From contig CAYMMP010000002.1 in the NCBI GenBank assembly GCA_964391625.1, positions 1 through 50,855 on the forward strand: 50,855 bases of DNA. The letters run 5' to 3'. The position numbers were made by a program, and so were the translations under genes. This document shows, piece after piece, positions 16,001-45,767 of the stretch. Position 1 is the stretch's first letter. Each line of letters begins with the position of its first letter. The notes under the pieces were generated by a model. The model was not told the origin of the DNA, searched no databases, and worked only from the letters and a program-made list of their open reading frames with translations. The stretch is from an uncultured Thermoplasmatales archaeon (GTDB lineage Archaea; Thermoplasmatota; E2; DHVEG-1).

Positions 16001-18602
16001 TACTGAAATTAAGAACAGAGGCACTCAGATTTCCAAGTGAAGCAGAAACGTTAGCAGATCCCATGTAAAAGCCTGTTTCGTTTCTTACATATGCCCTTAA
16101 AAGCAAATACGAAGATGCAACAGTCGCTGGTAATGTTATATTGTACCATCCTGTCGAAAGATTGTAAACATCTTCATTGCCATCACCCGTTTCATTTCCA
16201 AGATTAAATGGTAGTGCCCAATCCTCAAATACCATATCTTGATCTTCCATAGTATATGCAACCACACGCATATCAAGTGGATCGGTAACATTATTGAAAA
16301 ATCCAGTTAATGGTCTGTTTGTTGATGAAACGTTTATTGAAACATTTATTAGATAAGTTCCATTGTAGCCCATGTAACTGGTTTGCACACCATCTTGATC
16401 AAGACTACCGTTAGCAGCACAAGTTGTCGCAATATTGTTAAATCTAATGCTTATAGGAAAAGACTGATCCGCAAAAACACTGAATGAATAATTACGATTT
16501 TTTGGAACAGAAAATGTTCTTTCACCGCCCATTGTATTATATTCTTTTACCTGATAACCTAATTTCTGATCTTTGACCATAAGTGAAAAGTTTTTTGGCC
16601 CATATGTAATTTCCATTTGATGAGAAGTGTCGTTCCAATTGTATATCGGCCCAGTTACATTTACTCTAAATGTTAATGCGGGCTTTAGGTATATCTCAGG
16701 ATCTTGCAACATACTGATATACTCAGTTATTGGAACATATGGTAGAGTTGCTGAAATATTAACTGCAAGAGTTGGATAAGTTCCACTATTCTCCTGAGCG
16801 CTTAATTGATAGAATAAACCTCCATCACCACCTCCTGGGCCCATGGGTCCACTGAGGTTAAGCGTAGAAACATCTTCTGTGGTTGGAATGTTTGTAATAT
16901 TATAAACGCCGGTACTATTCGTATATCCTGAAAATGATCCTAGACTTGTACATCCATCCATACCAAAGCTTTGTACAGTGATATTAGCTAATGCCCCAAC
17001 TATAGGTTGGTTGTTTGAGTCTTTTATAGTTCCATACGAATAGAAAGTTGTTGTTGTAAATACAGTTTTACTAATTGTTTGTGATGTATTGTCATCTCCA
17101 TAAACGATTGTAATATTAAATTGATATGAACCCAATGGCGCATTTGATGAAGCGTTAAATGAAAAGTAGCTATCTTGTGAAAAGAAGAATCCATCCTGAT
17201 TATTTTTTTCCCAAACAATCAAATCATCCGTATTATATACGGTGATGTTGGAAGTATCGCCAAGATTTGTCCAATTATTTTCTTGGCATGTATAACCTGT
17301 TGGTAGGTCAACAGTTACATTAGTTAAACGTGATTCAGGACTGCCATATAGTATAAGATGGATAGTGAAATTTTGCTCAGTGTTGTTCATAATATATGCT
17401 GGTGAAACACTAGATTGCCACTCATCTAGATAAATTGAGTCATCGCCTCCTGGACCTGGGCCACCACCAGAACCTAATGTTATATTTTCCCATCTAGTTT
17501 GATTTTCTGAAATGGTAACATTATTTATTGTATGCGATTCGCAACCCTCCTTAAATGCCTCAATATCATAGGTTCCAACTGTTACATTATCATCAAAAAT
17601 ATATACACCAGTATCATTTGATATAACAATCTGTGGCATCTGTTGTTCATCAGTCCTATTTAACATAACTGAAGCTCCAGGCAACGGATCATCTAGATAA
17701 TCTTTCACAATGCCTCTAATTGTACCAGTTCCATTTCCATCTTGTGGGGGGCCGCCACCTGATCCATTTTCTGTAGTGAACCACCAAGATGGGCCAGTTG
17801 TGCCTGCCCCATTATCATCCCATGCAATTATATACCAATAATAGGTGGTATTATACTCAAGAGTTCCAGGATTGTAGCTCGTATTTGATGTATTTTCCAA
17901 TACTTGGCCGGGAGGTGTAGAATTTGCAAAATAAACATTATAAGTTAAAGGATCGCCATCAGGATCAGTACAATTCCAACTAATATTTGTTGAAATAAGA
18001 GAGTTACTACTTCCGTTAGAAGGAATCTCCATAGTGGGCGAATCAGGTGCATTGTTGCCCCCTCCAACATCACCCAATATTGTAAGAGTAATGTACCCTA
18101 TTTCTATATCCCCATCTAATTCACTACTAGGATCTTCAGAAACATTTATTGTATCTCCATTTGATACTTGCAATATTGAATCAGACCCAGGTCCTGAAGC
18201 ATTTTGAGTTGAGTTGACATGACTTACATTAAAAAATCCCCAGTACTCTCCATCTCCAGCTGTATTATTTTCAAAAGGGGGATTTGTATCATTGTCAGAT
18301 ACAGGAACTACAACCCACTCGCCTGTGTTTTCGTTTAATGCTTTAAGACAATAATATTGACCTACAGGGTCCCCAGTTATGTTGTCAACTGTAATATTTA
18401 CGAAAATTTGACTTTCATTAGAAAAATCTATTGTTTGATTCAAATATCCTATATATTCATAGGTTTGTATAACATCATTTCCACCTTCTGCAGACGCAGT
18501 GTATGAAAAAATATTTAAAGATCCAATAATCAATATTACTAAGATATAACTGCTTACTATTTTTTTAAAAATATATTTTAATTTATGATTATTTTTGTAC
18601 AT
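13011..18602 (-). CDS. Giant (about 1860 aa) secreted, C-terminally membrane-anchored, heavily N-glycosylatable surface protein with FN3/PKD-like and CarboxypepD_reg-like modules
   Basis: The likely start is ATG 18602 (MYKNNHKLKYIFKKIVSSYILVILIIGSLNIFSYTASA signal peptide); the track start at 18722 adds 40 non-signal residues. There are dozens of N-x-S/T sequons. It has a PKD/FN3-like module (WNCTDPDGDPLTYNVYF...YYWYIIAWDD), a CarboxypepD_reg-like module (GTIRGIVKD...GTYDIEAFKEG), repeated FN3 modules, an S/T/G/D-rich linker and a C-terminal TM anchor (PWVMVILVTVIVIWVIIGLLF) followed by a basic tail. Confidence 0.8.
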   Translation of the reverse strand: MYKNNHKLKYIFKKIVSSYILVILIIGSLNIFSYTASAEGGNDVIQTYEYIGYLNQTIDFSNESQIFVNITVDNITGDPVGQYYCLKALNENTGEWVVVPVSDNDTNPPFENNTAGDGEYWGFFNVSHVNSTQNASGPGSDSILQVSNGDTINVSEDPSSELDGDIEIGYITLTILGDVGGGNNAPDSPTMEIPSNGSSNSLISTNISWNCTDPDGDPLTYNVYFANSTPPGQVLENTSNTSYNPGTLEYNTTYYWYIIAWDDNGAGTTGPSWWFTTENGSGGGPPQDGNGTGTIRGIVKDYLDDPLPGASVMLNRTDEQQMPQIVISNDTGVYIFDDNVTVGTYDIEAFKEGCESHTINNVTISENQTRWENITLGSGGGPGPGGDDSIYLDEWQSSVSPAYIMNNTEQNFTIHLILYGSPESRLTNVTVDLPTGYTCQENNWTNLGDTSNITVYNTDDLIVWEKNNQDGFFFSQDSYFSFNASSNAPLGSYQFNITIVYGDDNTSQTISKTVFTTTTFYSYGTIKDSNNQPIVGALANITVQSFGMDGCTSLGSFSGYTNSTGVYNITNIPTTEDVSTLNLSGPMGPGGGDGGLFYQLSAQENSGTYPTLAVNISATLPYVPITEYISMLQDPEIYLKPALTFRVNVTGPIYNWNDTSHQMEITYGPKNFSLMVKDQKLGYQVKEYNTMGGERTFSVPKNRNYSFSVFADQSFPISIRFNNIATTCAANGSLDQDGVQTSYMGYNGTYLINVSINVSSTNRPLTGFFNNVTDPLDMRVVAYTMEDQDMVFEDWALPFNLGNETGDGNEDVYNLSTGWYNITLPATVASSYLLLRAYVRNETGFYMGSANVSASLGNLSASVLNFSMQPMIQGQTRIISSNNVSDRWNSTDIVNTTSVLFRLVSNGELLSNENPFVEVKRELNGQDYNQMINGQSGLFNISLVEGESIKKLVIYSQQYAPISTPVSASVLNGSTNTSTITCSNGVCNITMRSFGNYDPLGKNASFMMQMLKSNETCNVPNPPEYCDLCADEGDDDNASGEIQKDDFSPFKAILKGDISLMIKSQTSEGWIYVYYANVDLLASGPPDAAFSTESEKTDGGLAAAWQFGSQGPEIYDYVLVGMPLNQTLVNKTVKVDIPLLYDNEFNVIWNATAGDTIDIIRNDSTLNTSYGDYLGTQYEAYLNGTGVLCDPNNPTLSNGIGYKDVSNCTIWIKIPHFSGVGPEVTGEEPDPPSSFTAIANSTSEIYLTWSLGTKADYTRIQRKTSSYPINISDGTNVYNGTGTAISDTLLTEDTTYYYKAWSWNQTNEYWSPDNSSSNVKTKAIPYKTGESPSSGSTNIDPLSTVYVVCRDNDTADTMTATWLSNSSGDWIEFGTNTNISNNNTNISQTNSNFSGYNTTYWWSVNLTDGTYWDNTTYQFTTRTQYRPDEPRSFTATVASSSSIGLSWTKGNYSDYTRIQRKTSSYPINISDGTNVYNGTGSSTTSSSLSSSTKYYYRAWAFNSTDGTWSVLNASANETTDSSSGGDSGGTTGGGSTGITIQDDASEEEDTTTSDANTSSSSTTLESISSKYNIDLELSFYVNDTNGDGTVDTFTDPNNQLTSIDTVSVNSVTTFLISTDDDDIPEFFWDPTTDDITFITHAPVAETQTTIDVENEEITITVSINKSQNQWIYLDTTDDYPEYELTVETSDGRTISSDNIWRKNGKIYVLDDPDTEYNFIYNYTILPPTFNPESGTTITTLKPTITVVYQEPVIIQASTFNGGTIVLSTKDNKTFAYTPAENLENKEYALSIVVEDNEGNMRQDTANYIINTQTSGKPTAKPPANEIPWVMVILVTVIVIWVIIGLLFKTGFLYMENKPPKNKK
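14173..14245. repeat. 73-nt perfect intragenic repeat, copy 1 (partner at 14767-14839)
   Basis: The identical string ttataaacattggttccgtcagaaatatttattggatagctactagtttttctttgtattctagtataatctg occurs at both sites, 594 nt apart. It encodes IQRKTSSYPINISDGTNVYNG in two adjacent FN3-like modules. Confidence 0.85.
14767..14839. repeat. 73-nt perfect intragenic repeat, copy 2
   Basis: See the partner copy at 14173-14245. Confidence 0.85.
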
Positions 18603-18742
18603 CCCAATCACTTCCCATCCAGATATATTAATATAAAAAGAATCTATTACATCATTTTTATACATTTTATTTATGTAATTATGCATATGCATAACTATCT
18701 GTATAACTATCTGAACGAGCAAATTATTTTATAAATAAAAAA

Positions 18743-31242: not shown

Positions 31243-32766
31243 ATGACAATAGTCGTAGACGGAACTGGACTTACAGTTGAAAAAGTAGTGAAAGTTGCAA
31301 GATACAAAGAGAAAATAAAACTTCACCCTGATGCGCTTAAGCGTATCAAAACCTGTAGAGCAATGCTCGAAAAGAAAATCAAAGCTAAAGAAATAATGTA
31401 CGGGGTAAACACAGGAATAGGTGAGTTGTCAGAGATAGTTCTAACAGAGAAACAGGTGAAAGAATTTCAAAAATATCTGATCTATAATCACTCAGCTGGA
31501 GTTGGTGATCCAGCACCTATAGAATATGTGAGAGGTGCAATGCTAGGTAGAATTAACGTTCATGCACATGGACAGTCTGGTTGCCGACCTGAAATAACAC
31601 AAACACTAGTCGAAATGTTAAACAAAGATGTAACACCTTTTGTTTGTCAAAAGGGATCTGTAGGAGCATGCGGAGATCTTGCTCCAATGTCACAAATCGC
31701 ATTATTAATGCTTGGAGAGGGAAAGGCGTACTATAGAGGTAAATTGCTAAATGGCAAAGAAGCGATGAAAAGAGCGGGGATTGAAATACCTGGCCTAAAA
31801 GCAAGAGACGGATTGGCAATAATCAATGGATCAAACTTTCTTACTGCTATGAGCGCCATATTTTTGTATGATGCAAATAGATTTCTAAAGCAAGCGGAAA
31901 TCGCAGCAGCTATGTCACTAGAAGCATTGAAAGCAAATATGAAGCCATATACTCCAAAGCTTCATGAAGCTCGAGGTTTTCCTGGAGCAATAAAAAGCGC
32001 TAAAGCAATTGAAAAGTTAATAAAAGAAGGAGACCTTCAAAAGGGCAAGATAGAATGTAAGATTCAAGATGCATATTCCATGAGATCAACCCCACAGGTT
32101 ATCGGAACTGCTCGTGATGCACTGGAATTTGCTAAAAAACAAGTAGAAATAGAATTAAATGGTGTTGGGGACAATCCAGTATTTTTCCCCAAGGAAGATT
32201 TGCAGTTATCTGGAGCGAACTTCCAAGGGACGCCTGTTTCACTACCAATGGATATGGCAGGCACTGCAATCACAATGGTATGTGTAATGTCCGAGCGTAG
32301 AATGAATAGATTGAACAATCCTGCTCTAAGTGTTGGACTGCCTGCTTTTTTAACTAAAGGTGCTGGCATGTTCTCAGGCTTGATGCTGAGTCAGTACACA
32401 GCTGATATGTTGATTGTCGAGCAAAAAATACTTTCAGCCCCTGCATCAATTCAATCCATACCTGCAGCAGCAGATCAGGAAGATTTTGTTTCAATGGGAA
32501 TGAACACATCAATCAAAAACTTTCAGATATTGGACAATGCCTATGCAATTCTTGGGATAGAGTTTATGGCTGCAGCTCAAGCACTAGATCTTAGAGAGTA
32601 TAAATTTGGTAAAGGAGTAACCAAGGCAAAAGAAGTAATTAGAAAACATGTAAAATTCTTAGATAAAGATAGACCACTCTATCCAGATCATACTAAGATG
32701 AAAGAACTAGTAAAATCCTGTGAAATTTTAGAAGAAGTGGAAAAGACAGTGGGAAGTTTAGGATAA
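31243..32766 (+). CDS. hutH: Histidine ammonia-lyase (MIO-dependent), with Ala-Cys-Gly at the MIO triad
   Basis: GSVGACGDLAPMS (canonical GSVGASGDLAPL), QDAYSMRS and NFQG are present. Codon 143 is TGC at 31669-31671. Confidence 0.85.
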   Translation: MTIVVDGTGLTVEKVVKVARYKEKIKLHPDALKRIKTCRAMLEKKIKAKEIMYGVNTGIGELSEIVLTEKQVKEFQKYLIYNHSAGVGDPAPIEYVRGAMLGRINVHAHGQSGCRPEITQTLVEMLNKDVTPFVCQKGSVGACGDLAPMSQIALLMLGEGKAYYRGKLLNGKEAMKRAGIEIPGLKARDGLAIINGSNFLTAMSAIFLYDANRFLKQAEIAAAMSLEALKANMKPYTPKLHEARGFPGAIKSAKAIEKLIKEGDLQKGKIECKIQDAYSMRSTPQVIGTARDALEFAKKQVEIELNGVGDNPVFFPKEDLQLSGANFQGTPVSLPMDMAGTAITMVCVMSERRMNRLNNPALSVGLPAFLTKGAGMFSGLMLSQYTADMLIVEQKILSAPASIQSIPAAADQEDFVSMGMNTSIKNFQILDNAYAILGIEFMAAAQALDLREYKFGKGVTKAKEVIRKHVKFLDKDRPLYPDHTKMKELVKSCEILEEVEKTVGSLG

Positions 32767-32770
32767 AAGA

Positions 32771-34420
32771 TTATTTCAGCATCGGAGCTTTTATCTCTTT
32801 TTTCTTTATAAGTTCAATGGATTCATCATATCCAGCATCAGCATGTCTAATAATACCTATACCTGGATCTGTTTTAAAAACGCGCTTGATTCTTTCATCA
32901 GTTTCTTCTGTGCCATCACACACAACCACCATCCCTGCGTGAGTGGATAGGCCAATACCTACTCCCCCACCATTGTGTATTTGGACGCTATCTGCTCCAG
33001 CTGAACAGTTTAATAGTGCATTTAAAAGAGGCCAATCAGCAATTACATCGCTACCATCCTTCATACTCTCAGTCTCACGATAAGGAGAAGCAACACTACC
33101 GGTATCAAGATGATCTCTCGTGATAGCTATAGGGCCAATGTCTCCATTTCTGACCATTTTATTGATTTCAAGAGCAAACTTATCGCGCTCTCCATATCCT
33201 AACCAACAAACTCTAGCAGGCAATCCTTCCCAAGGAAGGTGCTCCTCTGCAAGATTTATCCAATTAATCAAAACATCGTCTTCTGGAAACATCTCAACGA
33301 CTTTCTTATCTGTTTTTAGAATATCTTCCGGATTACCAGACAATGCAAGCCAACGGAAAGGACCTCGACCAACAGCAAGCATTGGGCGAACATAAGCAGG
33401 TACAAAACCAGGATAATCAAAAGCATTTTTCAAGCCAGCTTTTAAAGCCTGACCTCTTAAGTTGTTACCATAGTCAAACACAATAGAACCGCTCTTCTGA
33501 AAATCAAGCATAGCTTTACAATGATTCTTCATACTCTCCATAGATCTCTTGATATATTCTTTAGGGTTGCTCTCTCTTAACTCTAAACCCTCCTTAAGAG
33601 AGCCTCCAAAATATCCTGCAGGTACATAACCATTAAGCTCGTCATGGGCAGAGGTTTGATCAGTTACAACATCGGGTTTAAAACCTTGCTTTACGAGAAG
33701 CGGATGGGTATCTGCACAGTTGCCTAGAAGACCAATAGCAAGTGCCTTACCTTCACTTTTAGCATTATCAGCTATACTCACTGCCTCAGCCATATCTTTA
33801 ACCTTGAGATCACAGAATCCCGCTTTCAAACGCCTATCAATTCGTTTCTCATCACATTCAACTGCAATACATACACCACCAGCCATCTTAACTGCTAGGG
33901 GTTGAGCACCGCCCATTCCTCCAACACCGCCAGTTAAAACAATCTTCCCCCCAAGATTACTCTTAAAATGCTTCTTTGCTAAAGAGGAAAAGGCCTCATA
34001 TGTTCCTTGAATAATGCCCTGAGTACCAATATAACACCATGAACCCGCAGTCATCTGACCGTACATGATAAGACCAAGACGCTCTAACTCATAGAACTTC
34101 TCCCAGTTACTCCAATGTGGTACAATATTAGAATTAGCCATTACAACTCTAGGGGAGTTAGTCCACGTCTTGAAGACAGCAACAGGCTTACCCGATTGAA
34201 TAACCATTGTTTCATCGTTTTCAAGTTTTTTTAGGGTTTTAACAATCTTTTCATAACATTTCCAGTTACGAGCAGCCTTACCTGTACCGCCATATATGAT
34301 AAGCTCTTCTGGAATCTCAGCATTTTCCAAGTTATTTTCAAGCATTCTAAGGATTGCTTCTTGTTTCCAACCCTTACATCTAAGCTTCATCCCTGTAGTT
34401 GCCTTTATCTTACTCCCCAT
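32771..34420 (-). CDS. hutU: Urocanate hydratase
   Basis: It has [10 protein letters not shown], an NAD-binding urocanase core and a length of about 550 aa. I prefer the ATG at 34420 over the track TTG at 34435. Confidence 0.9.
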
Positions 34421-34477
34421 AAGAATCAAGCACAATATCTAAGAAGTCTACTTAAAACTTTTTTAAGATAATTAAAA

Positions 34478-36000: not shown

Positions 36001-36055
36001 ACACAAATTAGTTTAACTTAAAACCATTTCAATTTTTCTATTATTGACTAAGCAA

Positions 36056-37321
36056 ATGATGGTCATGAACACAGAAAGTAAAACGATAAGAGATCCAATT
36101 CATGGAGACATAAAAATCAAAGGAATTTTTCTTGAGTTAATTGAAGCTCCGGAAATTCAAAGACTATATAATATTAAACAATTGGGGCTAGCGCACCTTG
36201 TTTTTCCTGGTGCACACCATACAAGACTCGAGCATTCTTTAGGCGCTTATCATATGGCTGTTAGAGTCGGCGAAAATTTGAATCTTGACAAAGATGAAAA
36301 AGAACTTTTATCTTGCGCAGCTATGCTACATGATATAGGCCATGGTCCTTTTTCCCACACTCTAGAATCACTTTTAAGAGATTCCTTGAATGTTGACCAT
36401 GTTGATTTAACAGAAGAGTTGATTTTCGGCAAACATGAAATATTTGAAGCTGAAGAAAAAAAGTTTGTAGCTTCACAAAATGTTTTTGATATTTTGACTA
36501 ATCACGATATCGAACATGAAAAGGTATCTGACATTATAAGGGGCAAAAAAAGTGAAAAGAATTATCTAAATCAACTTTTAAACAGCTCTATAGATGTTGA
36601 TCAACTTGACTATCTGATTAGGGATGCCTATTACACCGGGGTCTCTTATGGCTTAATTGACATTGAGCGTTTCTTACAGACATTGACTATCAATAATAAT
36701 AGCCTAGCAGTACGTAAAAAGGGCGTAGGCGTTGTTGAAAATATTCTAATGGCAAGGACTTTGATGTACTCATCCGTATATTTCCATAAAACAGTTCGTA
36801 TAGGGGAACTAATGCTTTCAAAAGCCATTGAACTTATAAAAGACGTTGAACCCTATGAATTCTTTAAAATGACAGATGGAGAGCTGTTAAATTATTTAAA
36901 AAATAAAGGGACGTATCAGAGTGAGATAGCTATTCGTTTGAAATATAGGAATTTGTTTAAACAGGCATATACAGAATCTAAATCTAGTTTGGATGCAGAA
37001 TCCATAAGTATTGTTAAAAAATTAGACGATGTGCATTTTAAAAGAGAAAAAGAAATAGATTTTGAAAATAAACTTAACATTCCAAGGGGCCATATCATAA
37101 TAGATGCCCCTTATACTGAATTACATTTATCTGAGCCGCGGATTGAGCAAACAGATATTATCATCGTTGATGGTGAAAAAACTAAAAATTTGATAGATTA
37201 CACGCCCATAGGTGAGGCAGTAAAATCGAGAACTATCCCAGATTGGTTTGTTATGATCATAACAGACGAGAAGTACAGAGACATAGTGGCAAAAAATGCT
37301 AATAAGATATTATTTAGCTAA
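36056..37321 (+). CDS. HD-domain phosphohydrolase (dNTP triphosphohydrolase-like)
   Basis: Motifs RLEHSLGAYHM, LHDIGHGPFSH and DVDQLDYLIRDAYYTG are present. Confidence 0.8.
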   Translation: MMVMNTESKTIRDPIHGDIKIKGIFLELIEAPEIQRLYNIKQLGLAHLVFPGAHHTRLEHSLGAYHMAVRVGENLNLDKDEKELLSCAAMLHDIGHGPFSHTLESLLRDSLNVDHVDLTEELIFGKHEIFEAEEKKFVASQNVFDILTNHDIEHEKVSDIIRGKKSEKNYLNQLLNSSIDVDQLDYLIRDAYYTGVSYGLIDIERFLQTLTINNNSLAVRKKGVGVVENILMARTLMYSSVYFHKTVRIGELMLSKAIELIKDVEPYEFFKMTDGELLNYLKNKGTYQSEIAIRLKYRNLFKQAYTESKSSLDAESISIVKKLDDVHFKREKEIDFENKLNIPRGHIIIDAPYTELHLSEPRIEQTDIIIVDGEKTKNLIDYTPIGEAVKSRTIPDWFVMIITDEKYRDIVAKNANKILFS

Positions 37322-37590
37322 AAAGTAATGAGGAGAGAATGGGGAAGATGAAGGTGGTGAGGAGAGATTTTTTAATAAAAATCTAATCATCAATCCTCCC
37401 CATTCACAATAAATATATAAAAAGTTAGTATATAAATTTTATTATAGAATGGTTTTTTACAGTACAAATATAATTAAATTTTATAATCGTTAAAACTACA
37501 TAATATTTTTTTAAATAATTTTAGCAAAATATATTTTTAAAAAGTTGATTTTTGTATTTGCAAAATTATTTTAAACGCTTATCAATTTAC

Positions 37591-37947
37591 ATGATTCTTG
37601 ATACAATGGAGCAAAATATAGTCCAATTCATTACCGACAACATACTGTTTTTTTTACCACTGGTAACAATCGGCATAGTATCAACTATTATATTGTATTT
37701 TACAGGAAAAAAAGATGATAAAAACAGAGATAACAAAGATGCTGATTTTCATATTATTCTGCTCAACAGAAACTTTAATTATTTTTTCTTAATATATTTA
37801 TTTATCTTTTTTATGATGATGCTAATAGGTTTTCTATCTAAATTCTATCTGGCAACAATTATTGGGGGGTGTATCGCAGTTATCCCTAGCATTGTACTAC
37901 TGTTGGTAGAATATACAGCAATTTTAAATAAGGAGAACGCTTTATGA
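37591..37947 (+). CDS. Small hypothetical membrane protein, first gene of the isoprenoid operon
   Basis: It has 3 hydrophobic helices. The start is uncertain (TTG 37552, ATG 37591 or ATG 37606). Its stop overlaps the next start (ATGA). Confidence 0.45.
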   Translation: MILDTMEQNIVQFITDNILFFLPLVTIGIVSTIILYFTGKKDDKNRDNKDADFHIILLNRNFNYFFLIYLFIFFMMMLIGFLSKFYLATIIGGCIAVIPSIVLLLVEYTAILNKENAL

Positions 37948-38621
37948 TATACCTCAAAATCAATCAAAATTTTGGAGAGCAAACTCAATTTTTATTTTTC
38001 TTCATTATTACAATTTTAATCGTTTGGTTGGTACTCGTACTTTTTTCTTATAGAAGATATGGTTGGAAAAGAACCACCATGTATTTTTTACCAATGATAA
38101 TCGCAGCACTATTTATTGAATCTGCAGGTGTTGCAAGTGGCAGATACTACTACCCAGGATATTTGTTGTATCTGTCAGTTGTTGGCGGTGGTGTTCCATT
38201 GATTATTGTTCTTGCATGGAGTGCGAATTTATTCTTATTTTTACATATTGGAAAATATGTTACTTTAAAATTTTATGACAGGCACAATTATCTTCAAATT
38301 ATTTTAATATCTTTTTTAGCTGGAATCATTGGAGTTTGTCTCGATTTATTGGAAGATCCAATTGCCCACCATAATAATTGGTGGATATGGGCAGGCTCTT
38401 TAAGGGGTGTAAAATTTTTCGAAGTACCAATAATAAATTTTGTAGGATGGTTCTATTTGATATTTTTTATGTCAGTTGCAACAATATTAATCGAACGATC
38501 TAGTTTTTCAGAAAATAGAAAGGTCTTGATTTCTATTTCATCAATTTCAATTACGGGAATCGTAATATTTTTAACACATGGAGCAACGCTAAAATTGTTT
38601 CAAATGATTGGATTGGCATGA
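37944..38621 (+). CDS. Polytopic membrane protein resembling the 'carotenoid biosynthesis protein' family that includes CruF hydratase
   Basis: ESAGVASGRYYYPGY...GGVPLIIVLAWS and LDLLEDPIAHHNNWWIW...EVPIINFVGWFYLIFF match the pattern I recall for that family. This needs HMM confirmation. Confidence 0.5.
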   Translation: MIYLKINQNFGEQTQFLFFFIITILIVWLVLVLFSYRRYGWKRTTMYFLPMIIAALFIESAGVASGRYYYPGYLLYLSVVGGGVPLIIVLAWSANLFLFLHIGKYVTLKFYDRHNYLQIILISFLAGIIGVCLDLLEDPIAHHNNWWIWAGSLRGVKFFEVPIINFVGWFYLIFFMSVATILIERSSFSENRKVLISISSISITGIVIFLTHGATLKLFQMIGLA

Positions 38622-38659
38622 GTTAAAGTAATAAAGGGAATTATATATTCCAAAAACTA

Positions 38660-39592
38660 ATGAATATTACTAAATTAATTATTGCTTGGGTAAAAATGAT
38701 TAGGCCTCCCATTCTTTTTCTTTGTTGTTTTGGAGCTTTGGTCGGGGCTTTAAACTCAGCAGTATTTTTAGGTGAAAGTCTATCAGTTTTTCAAATGATT
38801 ATGATACTTCTTGCACCTGCTTTTTTATCAACTGGAACTATGATACATAACGATGTTCCAGATCTTGATTCAGATAAAATAAATAGACCAAATAAACCAA
38901 TACCCTCAGGAATAATAAAAGAAAGAACTGCTTATTTTGTAGGATTATTTTTGATGTTTTTTTCAATTATTTTAGCATTATTCGTAAATTATAAGGACCA
39001 TGGCGAATTGAATTGGACATGCGCAATTTTAACGGCGTTTCTTGTCTTTGTTGGTATATATTACAACTATTGTGGGAAGCTTCATGGAATATTTGGGCAT
39101 ATAGCCGTAGCAATAGGTGTTGGAGCAATACCTTATTGGGGTGCAATAGCTGCATTTCCAAATGAAGTTTTTTTAATGTTGCCTTTAGGAATTGCAATTT
39201 TTTTCCAAGAAGTTGGAAGAGAGATAATGGTCTGTGTTGGAGACTATGTTGGAGATCTAAAAGCAGGATGGAAAACAACTCCTGTGAAACTCGGAAGAAA
39301 AAAGTCAATGCATGTTGCCCTAATATTTTATTTGATATTTATTCCATTGTACCCTCTACCGGCTTTTGATTATCTTAATATTGGCGTTCCACAGATTTTT
39401 GGTAAGTTTTATTTGATTGGTGGAACTTTATTAGCTATAACTTTGTTATTAACTTGGTTTTTAAGCTATTTGGCGGTACTAACTAAAGATGAAAAAAAGA
39501 TATGGAATGCATTTGAAAGATATGAAAGAATTGGAACTAGAGCAGTGATAATTGTTTTCCAGATATTCATATTTTTAGAAATATTTTATTGA
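38660..39592 (+). CDS. UbiA-superfamily prenyltransferase, paralogue 1
   Basis: Asp-rich motif 1 is HNDVPDLDSDKINRPNKPIPSG and motif 2 is VGDYVGDLKAGWKTTPV. It has about 8-9 TM helices. Confidence 0.8.
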   Translation: MNITKLIIAWVKMIRPPILFLCCFGALVGALNSAVFLGESLSVFQMIMILLAPAFLSTGTMIHNDVPDLDSDKINRPNKPIPSGIIKERTAYFVGLFLMFFSIILALFVNYKDHGELNWTCAILTAFLVFVGIYYNYCGKLHGIFGHIAVAIGVGAIPYWGAIAAFPNEVFLMLPLGIAIFFQEVGREIMVCVGDYVGDLKAGWKTTPVKLGRKKSMHVALIFYLIFIPLYPLPAFDYLNIGVPQIFGKFYLIGGTLLAITLLLTWFLSYLAVLTKDEKKIWNAFERYERIGTRAVIIVFQIFIFLEIFY

Positions 39593-39645
39593 TTGCCATA
39601 TATAATCAGAAAAACTCATATAAATATTGGAAGTAATATCATTGT

Positions 39646-40650
39646 ATGAATAAAATCTCAGGTTATGCAAGATTGTTGAGACTCCCGGGAATTGGGGCAC
39701 TTGGTATTGTACCTGTAATTGGTGCCTTAACAGTAGGAGTTGCAAATTTTATTGACCTATTGATTGTTTTTATTATTGGTGCATTCTCATGCATTTATGG
39801 ATTTATTTTGAATGATTATGTAGATATAGAATTAGATACACTAGTTGATGATTTGAAAAAAAAGCCATTGGTAAGCGGGATAGTTTCGAAGAAATCTGCA
39901 TTAACAACATCGATTTTCTTAATACTTCTTTCGTTTTTCTTTATCTCTATCCTATGGCATAGGCATGGTTTTGATGAATACAAATTCATGGCAGTGTTGT
40001 CAATAATTCTTGCAGGTTTTTTTGGAAGCATATATGATATTTATGGCAAAAGAATTGTTGGATCTGATTTTCTTGTTGCAATATCGGTATCCTTTGTATT
40101 TTTATTTGGAGCATTATCCTTTGGCAGACCTAACGAAATAACTTGGGTAATTTTTATTTTAACTTTTAACAACATATTATATATGAATGCCATTCAGAAC
40201 GGGCTAAAGGATGCAGATCATGACTATAAAATGAAGGTCAGAAATATCGCTCTTACATCCGGCGTAAAAGTCAAAGGAAATAATCTTACAATACCGTTTT
40301 CATTTAAAACATTTGGATTAGGGATAAGATTTTTCTCAGCCTTTTTATTATTTTCACCGTTTATAATTTTTAATAAAAATTATTATCTTTGGCAAATAAT
40401 CTTGCTGGCTTTTTTAATAATTATTTTCTTAATATTAAGTATTAGATTCTTGACAATGAAAACGTTTAATAGAACTAAAATACGGAAAATAATAGGGATA
40501 CAATCATTCCTAAGATATTCGCTTGTTCCGATTATGTTGATTTCCATTGTTGGAGTGAAATTATCTTTGATTTTGATTATTTTTCCGATAACATGGTACA
40601 TAATATTTACTCCATTAGTTGGAGAAAAATTATTCAAACCAAGAATGTAG
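39646..40650 (+). CDS. UbiA-superfamily prenyltransferase, paralogue 2
   Basis: Motif 1 is LNDYVDIELDTLVDDLKKKPLVSG and motif 2 is LKDADHDYKMKVRNIAL. The protein is polytopic. Confidence 0.75.
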   Translation: MNKISGYARLLRLPGIGALGIVPVIGALTVGVANFIDLLIVFIIGAFSCIYGFILNDYVDIELDTLVDDLKKKPLVSGIVSKKSALTTSIFLILLSFFFISILWHRHGFDEYKFMAVLSIILAGFFGSIYDIYGKRIVGSDFLVAISVSFVFLFGALSFGRPNEITWVIFILTFNNILYMNAIQNGLKDADHDYKMKVRNIALTSGVKVKGNNLTIPFSFKTFGLGIRFFSAFLLFSPFIIFNKNYYLWQIILLAFLIIIFLILSIRFLTMKTFNRTKIRKIIGIQSFLRYSLVPIMLISIVGVKLSLILIIFPITWYIIFTPLVGEKLFKPRM

Positions 40651-40672
40651 ATTATTAACAAAGGGGGAGCAT

Positions 40673-41911
40673 ATGAAATACAACGTAACAGTAGTTGGCG
40701 CTGGTCCAGCTGGCTCAACAGCTGCAAAAATACTCTCTGAAAATGGACTAAAAGTTGTTTTGATTGAAAAGGACAAACTTCCACGCGATAAACCTTGTGG
40801 TGGTGGTCTTCCACGCCGAGTTCTAGAGAGGTTTAACTATGTTGATAACGAAAGATTTATCGAATCCTATTCTTACTCTGGAGTTGCTTTTTCGCCCTCT
40901 ATGAAAGATAAAATCAAAGCAGAAAAAAAGATTCCGATTATAGCAACTGCTCTCAGAAAGAAATTCGATTTTGAATTAGTTAACCTTGCAAAAGAAAATG
41001 GAACAATAGTTAAAGATGGAAAAACAGTAACAGACTTGAAAATTTTTAAAGACAAGGCAAGAATCTTAACAAAAGATGGTGACTATATTGATTCAGAAAT
41101 TGTTGTTGGAGCAGATGGTGTATGGAGCACAGTTGCAAAAAAATCTGGATTAAGAAAAAGCAAATATGAAACTGGGGCATGCGTCTTACAGGAAGTTGAG
41201 GTTAATGAAAAAATCCTGGATGAATATTTTGGAAAAAGAAGAAAATGTTACATACATTCAAGATTTAAAGGAATTATGGGTTACGGGTGGATCTTTCCTA
41301 AGAAAGAACATCTTAACATAGGAATAGGTGGGGTCTGGGCAACTCATGGAGAAAAAATAAACTTATTGAAGTCTTACAGAGACTATATTGATTTTTTAAA
41401 ACAAAACAACCTAATTCCAAAAAACTTAAAAAAATCGCCTATTAAGGGAGGGAGGCTCCCAATAAATCCATTGGAAAAAACCTACGGCGAGAGGATTCTT
41501 CTTGTGGGCGACGCTGCAGGATTCATTAATCCGAGTACTGGGGAAGGCATCTATTATGCAATGTCTTCGGGAGAAATTGCTGCCAAAATGATTATCAAAG
41601 CATTACAAAAAGGAGATGTTTCGTCTGCCTTTTTATCCAACTACGAAAAATTGTGGAAAAAGGATTTTGGGAAAGATATCGAAGTAATCAATAATTTATT
41701 ATCAAAAGAATCATCGCAAGATTTTGAAGAACTTTTTAGAACAATTGGTTCAGATAAGCTCTTATCTGAGTTGTTTTTAGGCGTTTTGACTGGAGAATTG
41801 AGCGCTAACAAATATAAAGGTAAAATAATACGAAGATATCTTGCCTGCTCAATAAAAAACAAATTAAAAAAAAATAAAAAGAAAAAAGTGTTAGCTACTC
41901 TGGATGAGTAA
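40673..41911 (+). CDS. Geranylgeranyl reductase-family FAD-dependent oxidoreductase
   Basis: I chose the start at ATG 40673, after GGGGGAG. It has VVGAGPAGSTAA, the conserved RDKPCGGG and GDAAGFINPSTGEGIYYAMSSG. Confidence 0.85.
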   Translation: MKYNVTVVGAGPAGSTAAKILSENGLKVVLIEKDKLPRDKPCGGGLPRRVLERFNYVDNERFIESYSYSGVAFSPSMKDKIKAEKKIPIIATALRKKFDFELVNLAKENGTIVKDGKTVTDLKIFKDKARILTKDGDYIDSEIVVGADGVWSTVAKKSGLRKSKYETGACVLQEVEVNEKILDEYFGKRRKCYIHSRFKGIMGYGWIFPKKEHLNIGIGGVWATHGEKINLLKSYRDYIDFLKQNNLIPKNLKKSPIKGGRLPINPLEKTYGERILLVGDAAGFINPSTGEGIYYAMSSGEIAAKMIIKALQKGDVSSAFLSNYEKLWKKDFGKDIEVINNLLSKESSQDFEELFRTIGSDKLLSELFLGVLTGELSANKYKGKIIRRYLACSIKNKLKKNKKKKVLATLDE

Positions 41912-43283
41912 TAAGAACGTGTGCATAGTTGGAGCCGGGATTGGAGGATTAACTGCAGGGGCTTTATTATCAAAAAAAGGTTTCAACGTAACAATATTTG
42001 AAAAAGAATCTTTGATAGGTGGAAGAGCAATATCTCTAGATATGTCTTCTTTGACTTTCGAAGAGTACAAAAAATTACTTAAGAGATTCAATATAACTAT
42101 TCCATTTTCTGAACCGCCACTAGAAACACTTTTTCAGAAAAACATACTTCATGGATATCAATTAGACTTGGGTTATCACCTGATAGGTGGAGGGATAATC
42201 TATAATTTCAGTAACGTATTATCCATACCAAAAAATCATCTGAATATATTGGAATCAAAACTGTACGAGCAGAAAAACAGTCATTTTGATTTTTTTGTTA
42301 CAAATATTGAAAAGGTGAAAATGTTACCAAGAATTCTTCAACTACTCTTGTCTGGCGAAAAAACAATGAAAAAACTAGACGGAATAACAATTACTGAAAC
42401 TGTAAAAAAATATGGGACTGGGAAAATGAAAGTTGTTTTAGAGGTTAACTCCCGTTTAATTACCACAGTGAATAATCTTGATAAAATATCAACAGGTGAA
42501 GTTTTTCGAACTCAAAAAGATATGAAATTAAGAGGGGTAAGATATCCAAAAAACGGTTTATCCAACATTACTCAAAAACTAGCAAATTTTATTGAAAAGA
42601 ATGGTGGAAAAATTCATTTGAACTCTAAAGTTGAAAAAATAATTATTGAAAATAAGAAAGCAAAAGGTGTTATTGTTAATGGTAAGGAGAGTTTATTCGA
42701 TATTGTTATAGCAAATATTATAGTTCAAAATCTCTTTAAAATTGCAGATGAAAAACAGTTTCCAAAAAATTATGTTAACAATATAAAAACTCTTTATGGA
42801 ACTGGCAGTCTTTGTGCATATTATTCATTTAATAAAATCCAGCCAGAACTGTTAGGTAAAACTTTCATTTTCATTGAAAGGGATGCAGGCATTGATGGCA
42901 AAGATGCTGTAGGTATGATAGATTTTATGGTTGCCTCACCAGAGTCTGGATTGGCTCCAAAGTCACAACATCTTGTTCAATCTTACATCATATGTACGCC
43001 AGAAGAAGCAAAAAATAAAAAGATTCTGGAAAATCTCAAAAAAGTATTAGATAAAAATCTTGAGAGAATTATACCAGATTATCATTCCAATTTGAATTGG
43101 GCGATCTATCCTGCAATATGGCATCTGGATGGTGTAGCAAAAACTATTGATAATGAAAAACCTGAGATTAAATCCCCTATAAAAAATCTTTATTTAGTTG
43201 GGGATTGTGTTAGGGTGCCGGGCATAGGCATAAACTGTGCCATTAACTCTGCACAAACTTTAAAGGATATTATCAAGTCTTAA
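41904..43283 (+). CDS. Phytoene-desaturase-family (CrtI/CrtD-like) FAD oxidoreductase
   Basis: It has N-terminal VCIVGAGIGGLTAGALLSKKGFNVTIFEKESLIGGRA and C-terminal LYLVGDCVRVPGIGINCAINSA. It overlaps the reductase gene by 8 bp. Confidence 0.75.
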   Translation: MSNKNVCIVGAGIGGLTAGALLSKKGFNVTIFEKESLIGGRAISLDMSSLTFEEYKKLLKRFNITIPFSEPPLETLFQKNILHGYQLDLGYHLIGGGIIYNFSNVLSIPKNHLNILESKLYEQKNSHFDFFVTNIEKVKMLPRILQLLLSGEKTMKKLDGITITETVKKYGTGKMKVVLEVNSRLITTVNNLDKISTGEVFRTQKDMKLRGVRYPKNGLSNITQKLANFIEKNGGKIHLNSKVEKIIIENKKAKGVIVNGKESLFDIVIANIIVQNLFKIADEKQFPKNYVNNIKTLYGTGSLCAYYSFNKIQPELLGKTFIFIERDAGIDGKDAVGMIDFMVASPESGLAPKSQHLVQSYIICTPEEAKNKKILENLKKVLDKNLERIIPDYHSNLNWAIYPAIWHLDGVAKTIDNEKPEIKSPIKNLYLVGDCVRVPGIGINCAINSAQTLKDIIKS

Positions 43284-43327
43284 GAAAAGGAAACAATTTA
43301 ATATAAACAAAAAATAGCATAAAGGTA

Positions 43328-44335
43328 ATGAGTAAGCCGCCCATAGGTAAAAAAAATCCTCTTTCTGGAAAATGGACAATGAAGGAGCCTTACACCAAAA
43401 CCAGGTTTCTTTCAGCACAAGCCAGAGGAGTAATTGACCTTTTTCGACCTTTTACTCTCTCAGCACCATTTATTGTTTCAATGTCAATAATGGTCGCAAG
43501 CCTTGTTTTCAATTACGAAAATTTTGGCACAGAAATCCCATCGAGGTGGTACTTCACAGTAGCACAAGCTGGTTTAACAATAGCAATAGTAAATGCAGCA
43601 TCAAACTCTTTAAATCAGGCCACTGATGTTGAATCAGACAGAATATCTAAACCATATAGGCCAATACCAAGAGGTGTTATTAAAAGAGAGGGTGCTCAAA
43701 GCTTAGCATATATACTATATCTTTTTGCACTTCTCAGAGCTGTAACCATAAATGCTTGGTTTGGAACTTTCATATTTTTAATCATGATTTTTACAGTAAC
43801 ATACTCGCTTCCACCTAGAATGAAAAAATATCTTTTCGTAAATCAAATATGGATAGCTATACCAAGAGGGCTGTTTGGCATATTGGCAGCATGGTGTGTT
43901 TTTGGAGCGGAGCACTTATTTGATACGCCAACCCCTTGGATCATAGGAGGAATAGCCACCGTATTCCTAATCGGCGGAATGGCAACAAAGGATATTACAG
44001 ACGCTGAAGCAGATAAAAAAACAGGCGTCCATACAATGATAAATACTTTTGGGGTTAGAAAAACAGCGTTTGTTAGTTTTCCATTCATGTTTTTTTCATT
44101 TGCATTTATTCCGATATTCATAAATAACGGATCTTTGAAACCATATCTACAGCCTTTAACGCTATTTGCAGCATTTAGCATTTTAATCTTTTATTTAATG
44201 TACAGAAAAACAGAAAGCAAAACACTTGAAAACATACAAGCATGGGCAATCATGTACGTAACATACATATTCTTTGCGTTGGCGTTTGCTGTGTTGACAA
44301 TATTTAACAAAGCCCTACCATTTCCATTTAACTAA
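43328..44335 (+). CDS. UbiA-superfamily prenyltransferase, paralogue 3
   Basis: Motif 1 is LNQATDVESDRISKPYRPIPRG (N-Q rather than N-D) and motif 2 is TKDITDAEADKKTGVHT. The protein is polytopic. Confidence 0.8.
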   Translation: MSKPPIGKKNPLSGKWTMKEPYTKTRFLSAQARGVIDLFRPFTLSAPFIVSMSIMVASLVFNYENFGTEIPSRWYFTVAQAGLTIAIVNAASNSLNQATDVESDRISKPYRPIPRGVIKREGAQSLAYILYLFALLRAVTINAWFGTFIFLIMIFTVTYSLPPRMKKYLFVNQIWIAIPRGLFGILAAWCVFGAEHLFDTPTPWIIGGIATVFLIGGMATKDITDAEADKKTGVHTMINTFGVRKTAFVSFPFMFFSFAFIPIFINNGSLKPYLQPLTLFAAFSILIFYLMYRKTESKTLENIQAWAIMYVTYIFFALAFAVLTIFNKALPFPFN

Positions 44336-44368
44336 AAGTTAATATAGTGAAAATAATTTCTTATACAC

Positions 44369-44719
44369 ATGGAAAAAAAAACAATATTTTTAGAATTACC
44401 TGGCGAGCTAGTAGAAAAAATTGACAGGATGAATACTTTAGGGGACAGATCCACATTCGTATCAAATCTATTGGAAAAACAGATACAAAAACAGGAAATG
44501 AATCGCGATATTAAACCAGCTACAGAATTGACCAGGAGAATGGAAGAGCTTGATGGAAGCATGTCATTTCCTGGAGAAATAAAACTTATAAAAAACGATG
44601 GAGAGCCTATCGGCACTTTTAACATTGATACAATACAGGGTTTCGAAGATTTAGCTAAGAAAATACAAGAAGCATCTGAAGATCCGGCAGTCAGAATAAA
44701 AGCCCGCAGATGGTTATAA
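44369..44719 (+). CDS. Hypothetical protein with possible N-terminal ribbon-helix-helix
   Basis: TIFLELPGELVEKIDRMNTLGDRSTFVSNLLEKQI has a strand-helix-helix pattern. It is co-directional, 33 bp after UbiA-3. I prefer it over the antisense ORF 44332..44727, which is Ser/Phe-rich shadow-like sequence. Confidence 0.45.
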   Translation: MEKKTIFLELPGELVEKIDRMNTLGDRSTFVSNLLEKQIQKQEMNRDIKPATELTRRMEELDGSMSFPGEIKLIKNDGEPIGTFNIDTIQGFEDLAKKIQEASEDPAVRIKARRWL

Positions 44720-45649: not shown

Positions 45650-45767
45650 TGTCGGGAGCGGGATTTGAGCCCGCGACCTCCTGATATCTTAGCACCAAAG
45701 GCTATTTTTCGAACCCTTTAGCTTAGCTTATGAGTCAGGCGCTCTAACCAGGCTGAGCCACCCCGAC
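45650..45767 (-). tRNA. tRNA with CAT anticodon (elongator Met or Ile2) carrying a roughly 43-nt intron at the canonical 37/38 position
   Basis: The reverse complement folds by hand: acceptor GTCGGGG/TCCCGAC, D arm GCTC-AGCCTGGTTA-GAGC, anticodon stem CCTGA/TCAGG with loop CT-CAT-AA interrupted by about 43 nt, and T arm GCGGG-CTCAAAT-CCCGC. The discriminator is A, no CCA is encoded, and an oligo-T run follows. Confidence 0.85.

Follow-up and report, generated by a model that had tools for sequence, protein, structure and literature searches.

An operon-like cluster of isoprenoid enzyme genes

Within a 50,855-nt stretch of contig CAYMMP010000002.1 (the whole of which is referred to as the window), we analyzed a cluster of eight co-directional open reading frames (ORFs) on the forward strand between positions 37552 and 44719. 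These encode three UbiA-superfamily prenyltransferases (U1, U2 and U3), a CruF-family membrane protein (g2), a flavoprotein of the geranylgeranyl reductase (GGR) subfamily (g5), a CrtI/CrtD-like flavoprotein (g6) and two small proteins (g1 and g8; Table 1). The cluster is real, conserved and non-canonical, its core is modular and holds seven genes at most, and it appears to constitute a lineage-specific accessory operon of Thermoprofundales-type Thermoplasmatota. The host is an uncultured Thermoplasmatota archaeon of the Thermoprofundales/MBG-D (Marine Benthic Group D) type: identical or near-identical contigs originate from sediment metagenomes, and homologues are labelled as Thermoplasmatota, Thermoplasmatales or Euryarchaeota archaeon, among them the MBG-D genome of Thermoplasmatales archaeon SM1-50.

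An earlier interpretation of the window, made from its letters and ORF translations (the original prediction), had described an eight-gene isoprenoid-tailoring operon at this position. All eight ORFs were recovered, and junctions recomputed across them (-4, 38, 53, 22, -8, 44 and 33 bp) were identical to those previously given, such that the description of operon-like packing holds. The first overlap joins the stop of g1 to the start of g2 and the second joins g5 to g6, while the 22-bp gap presupposes that the GGR gene starts at ATG 40673, the start used in gene calls of identical contigs (412 aa). The very AT-rich spacer of 230 bp reported ahead of the first ORF was also found (37322-37551; 20.9% GC, compared with 34.5% for the window overall), but g1 more likely starts at ATG 37606 than at TTG 37552, which lengthens the spacer to 284 bp. 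Given that 25 orthologues start at the equivalent of ATG 37606 (MEQNIV...), we consider g1 to be a protein of about 113 aa rather than 131 aa. The spacer separates the cluster from an HD-domain gene (36044-37321) that does not adjoin the cluster in most related loci. Minus-strand ORFs within the region lie wholly or largely inside longer plus-strand genes, and no support was found for them. The GC content of the cluster (32.5%) is in line with the window, and there is thus no sign of recent transfer. On the basis of the genes alone, the cluster has the attributes of an operon, namely a shared strand, short or overlapping junctions, and an order kept across divergent genomes.

Table 1. Position, strand and basis of assignment of the cluster genes and of the region upstream of them.
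Feature	Position	Strand	ORF as listed	Basis
AT-rich intergenic region, presumed promoter region	37322..37605			21% GC vs window 34.5%
g1, small membrane protein of ~113 aa with about three hydrophobic helices	37606..37947	+	37552-37947	ORF and orthologue starts
g2, Caroten_synth (CruF-family) integral membrane protein, 225 aa	37944..38621	+	37944-38621	PF04240
UbiA1 (U1), UbiA-superfamily prenyltransferase, 310 aa, most DGGGP-synthase-like of the three	38660..39592	+	38660-39592	PF01040
UbiA2 (U2), divergent UbiA-superfamily prenyltransferase, 334 aa	39646..40650	+	39646-40650	PF01040
g5, GGR-subfamily flavoprotein, 412 aa, accessory paralogue	40673..41911	+	40619/40673-41911	TIGR02032
g6, CrtI/CrtD-like FAD flavoprotein, 459 aa	41904..43283	+	41904-43283	PF01593
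UbiA3 (U3), UbiA-superfamily prenyltransferase, 335 aa, first motif NQxxDxxxD	43328..44335	+	43328-44335	PF01040
g8, soluble protein, 116 aa, outside the conserved core	44369..44719	+	44369-44719	ORF and AlphaFold2 model

Conservation and modularity across related loci

Related loci were gathered by searching with the g2 family, yielding 26 species-representative genomes and 67 metagenome contigs from the Joint Genome Institute (JGI), and the ORFs of all loci were clustered. The order g1, CruF-like, UbiA, (UbiA), (GGR), CrtD-like, UbiA recurs in about 95 loci with GC contents of 27-56%, an arrangement that is far beyond chance and from which we conclude that the cluster is a selected unit. The g1 family was found in 84 of 95 loci. 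Gene order in related genomes, which the original prediction had named as a check on its proposal, is therefore conserved, with a UbiA gene following the CruF-like gene in 77 of 80 loci. Among the 52 loci possessing both CruF-like and CrtD-like genes (“complete” loci), U1 is present in 48, U3 in 43, U2 in 38, GGR in 35, and g8 in 4, all of them close relatives; three UbiA genes occur in 34 and two in 17, and the GGR gene is missing from 17. The conserved core is seven genes or fewer, and the eight-gene operon proposed is not a fixed unit, with g8 rare, GGR often absent, U2 replaceable or lost, and versions known that lack CruF or contain only UbiA genes.

While the internal order of the cluster stays, its flanks vary between clades. 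In the clade that includes the window, GAPDH and HD genes lie upstream and PIN and aIF2-gamma genes downstream; in a large clade, MMPL, MTHFR and MetV genes lie upstream, and a secreted protein of ~1050 aa and a fourth UbiA (U4) downstream; and a third clade is flanked by Hdr-like genes. U4 is a 45%-identical paralogue of U3 and is found about 3 kb downstream of it in 20 complete loci. Genes for an MMPL/RND transporter (~1115 aa, with a sterol-sensing domain), MTHFR and a MetV-like DUF5981 protein lie upstream in divergent orientation in about 25-40 loci (L010-L021, L039-L069, L104 and L109), and MTHFR and MetV remain beside the cluster even after its rearrangement in L024. We also noted a single CarboxypepD_reg domain in a 1903-aa ORF of the window (13011-18722, reverse strand), a domain that is faintly detectable in the ~1050-aa secreted proteins between U3 and U4 of other clades.

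An array of rearrangements, losses and duplications was identified among the related loci. Divergent clades reshuffle the gene order but keep the set together (e.g. L024, L030-32, L096 and L098), and in some clades the paralogues U2p or U2q stand in for U2 or U1. U2 is dispensable in some lineages, as its position is occupied by an IS200-type Y1 transposase in L033 (11756-12055, reverse strand) and it is reduced to fragments in L015. A U2-anchored search recovered further variants: a closed Thermoplasmatales genome of 1.92 Mb (CP070798.1, GCA_020343515.1; L104, 48822-69826) possesses the arrangement U2q-U2-CrtD-U3-secreted protein-U4 without g1, CruF or GGR, and the loci L105-L107 have only U2 and a further UbiA paralogue, U5. 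Since CruF-less and U2-plus-UbiA variants exist, the genes of the cluster need not form one fixed pathway. Two contigs (L041 and L108) carry two modules each, with CrtC-like-U2q-U2-CrtD a few kb upstream of g1-CruF-U1-U2-CrtD-U3, which indicates duplication or recombination of the cluster.

Inside the cluster of three related loci we identified a further ORF family of 333-380 aa (L041:3358-4359, L088:6287-7429 and L089:7355-8497). Its sole Pfam match, to the CrtC N-terminal lipocalin domain, is sub-threshold (E=1.3e-3; 19.9 bits, cut-off 22.5), and its top match in the PDB is 7a0q, a “CrtC domain-containing protein” (E=0.22). Judged from these matches, it may represent a second type of isoprenoid hydratase.

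Modularity of this kind might suggest that the genes share no pathway at all, and are independent membrane protein and flavoprotein paralogues that happen to be neighbours. GGR, U2, CruF/g1 and g8 are each lost in some lineages, and U2 accompanies just one other UbiA in L105-L107. We nevertheless regard a chance association as scarcely credible, since order is kept across about 95 loci over a twofold range of GC content and with changing flanks, start and stop codons overlap, and even the divergent clades that rearrange the set keep it together.

Three divergent UbiA paralogues

Families were assigned through Pfam and NCBIfam profile searches of all eight proteins, in which the three UbiAs, the CruF-like protein and the GGR-type flavoprotein scored above family cut-offs, in line with the assignments of the original prediction; the motifs it quoted for the UbiAs and the GGR-type protein were all located. 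For PF01040 (cut-off 34.2 bits) the scores were 101.5 for U1, 65.3 for U2 and 113.9 for U3. Each protein possesses multiple hydrophobic segments and both Asp-rich motifs: NDVPDLDSD at residue 64 and DYVGD at 195 in U1, NDYVDIELD at 56 and DADHD at 189 in U2, and NQATDVESD at 96 and DITDAEAD at 222 in U3. Pairwise identity among the three is only about 25%, identifying them as ancient paralogues.

Relationships to digeranylgeranylglyceryl phosphate (DGGGP) synthase were assessed with models NF009521, NF009522, NF009512 and those of PRK12884 type, which have enzyme-level (equivalog) cut-offs of 269-353 bits. The best NCBIfam matches of U1 were PRK12884 (127.6 bits, cut-off 269) and the DGGGP synthase model PRK12883 (101.9 bits, cut-off 353). 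On NF009521/PRK12882, NF009523/PRK12884 and NF009522/PRK12883, U1 scored 90, 128 and 102 bits and U3 scored 74, 92 (92.5) and 56 bits, respectively; U2 scored 63.5 bits on the second, its best match, and 28 bits on the third, with no match to the first at E<=0.01. All three proteins thus fall below the DGGGP synthase cut-offs. For calibration, a 267-aa fragment of the crystallised Methanocaldococcus jannaschii enzyme was scanned on the same models and obtained 288, 251 and 203 bits on NF009521, NF009523 and NF009522, exceeding the cluster proteins, as an authentic DGGGP synthase, by a factor of two to three (203-288 versus 28-128 bits). The best PDB match of all three is this same M. jannaschii enzyme (6m31; U1 54.8, U2 27.3 and U3 41.9 bits). 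Models for UbiA, MenA/MqnP, haem O synthase, ChlG/BchG and homogentisate phytyltransferase gave 17-67 bits against cut-offs of 210-436. The view that the cluster fits neither canonical pathway, archaeal ether-lipid nor bacterioruberin synthesis, is supported by these scores. The original prediction had named UbiAs in housekeeping clades combined with genes scattered among related genomes as the contrary outcome, whereas we observed sub-cut-off scores and a conserved order.

A crude neighbour-joining tree, with M. jannaschii DGGGP synthase and ChlG as outgroups, served only to define orthogroups. At least seven UbiA subfamilies exist in the lineage. Orthologues of U1, U2 and U4 are named “4-hydroxybenzoate polyprenyltransferase” by JGI, and a U3 orthologue “geranylgeranylglycerol-phosphate geranylgeranyltransferase”; public names of U2 orthologues are only “UbiA family” or “4-hydroxybenzoate polyprenyltransferase”. 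One U2 orthologue (P0431, 69% identical) is labelled “Candidatus Woesebacteria bacterium” at NCBI, and its source is most likely a mis-binned archaeal contig.

The weak cross-matches to ChlG/BchG, homogentisate phytyltransferase, UbiA and MqnP models bear on a reading in which the UbiAs prenylate an aromatic or tetrapyrrole acceptor, giving a quinone, tocochromanol-like or chlorophyll-like metabolite whose side chain is reduced by GGR and whose ring is oxidised by the flavoprotein. A match of g5 to the menaquinone reductase MenJ (97 bits) and the listing of BchG and BchE as gained in Thermoprofundales subgroup E (PMC9585477) are in keeping with such a product. All of these matches, however, lie far under their cut-offs and are weaker than those to DGGGP synthase-type models; ring-biosynthesis genes (men, mqn, ubi and bch) were found neither in the window nor among recurrent neighbours; and the Caroten_synth protein would be left without a role. 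A prenylated head group is hence very improbable.

Flavoproteins of the cluster and a possible role in ether lipids

The g5 protein exceeds the cut-off of the GGR subfamily (TIGR02032; 214.3 bits, cut-off 158.8) and contains an FAD (flavin adenine dinucleotide) motif at residue 9, PCGGG at 41 and GDAAGF at 279. On the archaeal lipid-GGR equivalogs NF041080, NF041160 and NF041385 it scored 108.7, 107 and 59.3 bits, against cut-offs of 580-780, and for the Thermoplasmatales GGR equivalog the comparison is 107 versus 780 bits. PDB matches comprised FixC (96.9 bits) and Thermoplasma GGR (3oz2; 91.2 bits), the latter no nearer than the former. We considered whether GGR and one of the UbiAs might represent the housekeeping lipid enzymes of the cell, and judged this unlikely on the calibrated scores; by the same measure, all enzymes of the cluster behave as accessory paralogues.

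For g6, which carries the motif GAGIGG at residue 10, only the general fold family is passed (PF01593 Amino_oxidase; 71 bits, cut-off 19.8). Its top NCBIfam matches, the bifunctional haloarchaeal CrtID (NF058655; 74.4 bits, cut-off 640) and CrtD (TIGR02733; 74.2 bits, cut-off 550), are sub-threshold, as are crtI_fam (TIGR02734; 69.2 bits, cut-off 238) and NF042421 (62.7 bits). The earlier assignment as a CrtI/CrtD-type desaturase therefore stands for the fold and not for the enzyme, for which about 74 bits compare with cut-offs of 240-640. In the PDB, g6 best matches an uncharacterised Methanosarcina mazei oxidoreductase (3ka7; 73.7 bits), followed by gamma-carotene desaturase (4rep; 55.4 bits) and CrtI (4dgk; 25 bits), and its orthologues are named “protoporphyrinogen oxidase” by JGI. 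We regard g6 as a putative desaturase or hydratase acting on an isoprenoid chain.

UbiA and GGR are the usual pair for attaching and then reducing a C20 chain in the chlorophyll, tocopherol, menaquinone and archaeal lipid pathways, and the archaeal ether-lipid core, consisting of DGGGP synthase and digeranylgeranylglycerophospholipid reductase, needs one UbiA and no CruF- or CrtD-type enzyme. An alternative function of the operon would be to modify geranylgeranyl chains in the glycerol ether lipids that the cell itself makes. In such a scheme one UbiA would form ether bonds in the manner of DGGGP synthase and other UbiAs would add extra prenyl groups, the CrtI-like flavoprotein would hydrate a chain double bond, the CruF-like protein would perform terminal hydration and GGR would saturate the rest, yielding precursors of archaeol or tetraethers that are hydroxylated, branched or partly unsaturated. 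Among solved structures, that of DGGGP synthase is nearest to each of the three UbiAs, and the enzyme provides the JGI name of a U3 orthologue, but their scores remain paralogue-like. Similarly, a GGR-subfamily protein is found in 35 of the 52 complete loci, but g5 (<=109 bits, cut-offs >=580) is far from the lipid GGRs. The MMPL/RND transporter with its sterol-sensing domain, nearby in about 25 loci, would suit a lipid product, but two unrelated genes stand between it and the cluster, and other clades lack it. Anoxic habitats and the failure to find carotenoid backbone genes nearby also argue for ether lipids, whereas we know of no Caroten_synth or CrtC-family enzyme that acts on them. A lipid-active CrtI homologue is documented in the hydroxyarchaeol synthase MA0127 of Methanosarcina acetivorans, which carries out hydration at a double bond of the geranylgeranyl chain (Mori et al. 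2015, as cited in PMC10821996 and PMC12777485). Like MA0127, g6 would be an archaeal CrtI-fold flavoprotein acting on a non-carotenoid isoprenoid chain, and its best solved relative, from M. mazei, shares the fold; the similarity of g6 to that relative is modest, however, and 3ka7 is known by fold and not as an orthologue of MA0127. To our knowledge, MA0127 does not occur in a cluster with UbiA and CruF genes. Taken together, we consider ether-lipid tailoring somewhat unlikely, though a serious competitor to the end-group reading developed below.

The CruF-like protein and its small partner

Orthologues of g1 (n=25) lie directly upstream of the CruF-like gene and share the N-terminus MEx(N/T)(I/V)V. 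No Pfam or NCBIfam family matches g1, even at E<=10. We also considered that g1 might correspond to an N-terminal extension, now detached, that longer Caroten_synth proteins (~300 aa) carry, and rejected this possibility, since a search of 283 family members with a hidden Markov model (HMM) of g1 (hmmsearch) returned nothing significant.

The 225-aa g2 protein belongs to the Caroten_synth family (PF04240; 69.5 bits, cut-off 25), which settles in favour of the original prediction its concern that this protein might lack any significant carotenoid-family match. Searches against enzyme-level models gave 29.9 bits for the cyanobacterial/Deinococcus-type CruF (gamma-carotene 1'-hydroxylase, NF045693; cut-off 400) and, at E<=0.01, nothing for the two models of haloarchaeal CruF, TIGR03460 (cut-off 154.7) and NF041333 (cut-off 300), both of which do match other Caroten_synth proteins in the same profile library. 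From its family, g2 is a putative isoprenoid double-bond hydratase. It retains every residue that is invariant across distant Caroten_synth proteins (E59, G66, D134, D138, P139, W147, W149, P162, N165 and W169), and is therefore probably a catalytically competent enzyme. An AlphaFold2 model of low confidence (pLDDT, the predicted local distance difference test, of 61) comprises six long helices in two similar halves. The orthogroup is tight, forming a single cluster at 50% identity, with scores that fall steeply from 407 to 155 to 74 bits. The nearest Caroten_synth proteins outside Thermoprofundales are from Chloroflexota, where they are encoded apart from any UbiA or CrtD cluster; names of the nearest distant relatives were uninformative, and a tblastn search against plasmids gave no match. 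Orthologues are named “uncharacterized membrane protein” by JGI and occasionally “bisanhydrobacterioruberin hydratase”.

The last of these names points to bacterioruberin. In haloarchaea, the UbiA-type lycopene elongase/1,2-hydratase LyeJ, the 3,4-desaturase CrtD (also a phytoene desaturase) and the C50 2'',3''-hydratase CruF are encoded side by side and act jointly on acyclic carotenoid ends, converting lycopene to C50 bacterioruberin (Yang et al. 2015, as cited in PMC9258230; PMC11946383). A cluster of this type, with adjacent and co-directional UbiA, CrtD-like and CruF-like genes, is present here at the family level only. Genuine bacterioruberin synthesis, with the cluster serving as the LyeJ/CrtD/CruF pathway of these archaea, would follow from KEGG-style annotation and from Liu et al. 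2022, who report complete gene sets in some subgroup E genomes (PMC9585477). Yet g2 lacks a match to either haloarchaeal CruF model, g6 scores 74 bits against CrtD/CrtID cut-offs of 550-640, no public name calls any of the UbiA orthologues a lycopene elongase, and the haloarchaeal pathway has no counterpart of the extra UbiAs, g1 and GGR. Bacterioruberin itself is thus an improbable product.

Proposed end-group tailoring of a long isoprenoid

The strongest signal in the cluster is that members of the Caroten_synth, CrtD-like and UbiA families lie together. Because the same three families act together on the psi-ends of lycopene in haloarchaea, and because a CrtC-matching ORF lies within three related loci, we tentatively favour, while holding it to be somewhat short of probable, a reading of the cluster as a divergent and expanded relative of the LyeJ-CrtD-CruF end-group tailoring module, with a product other than bacterioruberin. 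In this reading, both systems combine prenyl transfer, hydration and desaturation of terminal isoprene units by membrane or membrane-peripheral enzymes. They differ in the number of UbiAs, one in the haloarchaeal module against two or three ancient paralogues here, and in the addition to this cluster of a GGR paralogue and g1, the failure of g2 and g6 to match haloarchaeal CruF and CrtD/CrtID models, the lack of carotenoid backbone genes nearby, and hosts that are sediment archaea rather than aerobic halophiles.

Under this proposal, the operon would act on a long, acyclic isoprenoid of the membrane and tailor its terminal isoprene units (psi-ends), the substrate being most likely a C40, carotenoid-type backbone supplied by genes elsewhere in the genome. 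The UbiA paralogues would ionise a prenyl diphosphate at their two Asp-rich Mg2+ motifs and then alkylate the substrate, and given their mutual identity of only about 25%, each would be expected to differ in acceptor, donor or position. The Caroten_synth protein, with the small, translationally coupled g1, would hydrate a double bond at the terminus or in a side chain; the CrtD-like flavoprotein would desaturate beside the new hydroxyl or serve as a second hydratase; and the GGR paralogue, where present, would saturate remaining double bonds. The product would be a prenyl-elongated, hydroxylated and possibly partly saturated isoprenoid, and should not be bacterioruberin, as the equivalog tests fail and extra UbiAs, g1 and GGR are present.

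Two further types of system offer partial parallels. The psi-end tailoring pairs of bacteria, CruF with CrtD (myxol, deinoxanthin) and CrtC with CrtD (spirilloxanthin), likewise join a 1,2-hydratase to a CrtD-type flavoprotein, and the CrtC-like ORFs recall the second pair, but those systems lack UbiA and GGR and are encoded with crtB and crtI, and the CrtC match here is sub-threshold. In actinobacterial C50 pathways, the CrtEb elongase is of UbiA type and its gene accompanies those of small multi-helix membrane proteins (~110-130 aa), the cyclase subunits CrtYe/CrtYf; by contrast, similarity of g1 to any family is undetectable, and the searches found no cyclase domain.

Several observations weigh against end-group tailoring of a carotenoid-type chain, and the substrate is its weak point. 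None of the six enzymes attains a curated equivalog cut-off in NCBIfam, including those of both CruF types for g2 and of phytoene desaturase/CrtD (238-640 bits) for g6. Furthermore, the solved protein nearest to g6 belongs to a methanogen that is non-carotenogenic, the closest relative of the UbiAs is an O-prenylating enzyme, the cluster is modular, with CruF-less and UbiA-only variants, and the source samples are mostly sediments. No carotenoid pathway is known to employ a saturase of the GGR type or a set of three ancient UbiAs. The genes crtB, crtI and GGPP (geranylgeranyl diphosphate) synthase were found neither in the 50.9-kb window nor among recurrent neighbours within 10 kb of 95 loci. 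In agreement with the original prediction, a domain search of the other window ORFs of at least 100 aa recovered no phytoene/squalene synthase, polyprenyl synthase or geranylgeranylglyceryl phosphate (GGGP) synthase, and the last was also absent from recurrent neighbours in related loci. A lycopene-type precursor is nonetheless plausible in the lineage, since Thermoprofundales subgroup E reportedly carries crtB, crtD, cruA, crtU and crtZ next to heliorhodopsin (PMC9585477).

As a psi-end is a terminal isoprene unit and occurs equally on the geranylgeranyl chains of ether-lipid precursors, an ether-lipid substrate would also fit. The C45/C50 pigment, modified ether lipid or quinone suggested earlier as products are purely inferential. 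A bolder possibility, which we hold to be unlikely, is an undescribed class of membrane isoprenoid specific to Thermoprofundales, for example ether-lipid or C40 chains bearing C-linked prenyl branches and tertiary hydroxyls. Such groups would be installed by DGGGP synthase-like UbiAs that have given up O-prenylation in favour of prenylating alkenes, with later trimming by a hydratase of the CruF family working outside carotenoid metabolism.

Relation to published annotations and significance

Individual genes of the cluster seem to have been seen before, singly and through KEGG labels, as CruF and, for one or more UbiA paralogues, as “BchG”. Within Thermoprofundales subgroup E, Liu et al. 2022 reported CruF, as its first detection in Thermoplasmatota, together with “BchG”, and interpreted them as genes for bacterioruberin and chlorophyll; the same study places the gain of BchE and BchG at the base of subgroup E, finds crtB elsewhere in some genomes of the order, and employs these labels as evidence for a light-adapted lifestyle, while its text contains neither of the terms UbiA and prenyltransferase (PMC9585477). 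In the literature searched, we found no description of the operon as such, and no lipid or pigment firmly assigned to Thermoprofundales. The threshold tests above do not justify the published light-related labels, which look like over-annotation.

Thermoprofundales (MBG-D) are uncultured and among the most widespread archaea in sediments, and interest in the cluster derives mainly from these abundant hosts. It is the most conspicuous lineage-specific isoprenoid locus of the group, alongside the unusual radiation of UbiA subfamilies. If its product is new, it might explain orphan sedimentary isoprenoids or provide a biomarker, and would extend the range of reactions known for UbiA and CruF enzymes; an undescribed isoprenoid class, if confirmed, would offer a biomarker diagnostic of an archaeal group that ranks among the most abundant uncultured ones in sediments. 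With a length of about 7 kb, the operon is compact enough for expression work in E. coli.

Other features of the window

The last ORF of the cluster, g8, matches no Pfam or NCBIfam family, even at E<=10. Its single-sequence AlphaFold2 model, of low confidence (pLDDT 65), begins with a strand (residues 5-10) and two helices (12-21 and 27-44). An N-terminal strand-helix-helix is typical of ribbon-helix-helix DNA binders, and from its modelled fold g8 is probably a regulator of this type.

The remainder of the window is made up of housekeeping genes, including aIF2-gamma, S6e, FtsZ, PheRS-beta, transketolase, hutH/hutU and similar. Histidine ammonia-lyase (31243-32766, forward strand) and urocanase (32771-34435, reverse strand) are encoded tail to tail, a pair that fits the amino-acid-degrading lifestyle proposed for the group. 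The gene at 99-1679 (forward strand) encodes a radical SAM protein of 526 aa that ends in a C-terminal helix-hairpin-helix. We considered tetraether synthase as its identity and found no support for it, as only weak, sub-threshold matches to B12-binding radical SAM families were obtained (TIGR04013, 61 bits); the gene may instead be of the kind labelled “BchE” in KEGG-based surveys of the order. Finally, a 118-nt tRNA match in Rfam (45650-45767, reverse strand; 53.5 bits over the full model), which was not reported by ARAGORN, is probably an intron-containing archaeal tRNA.

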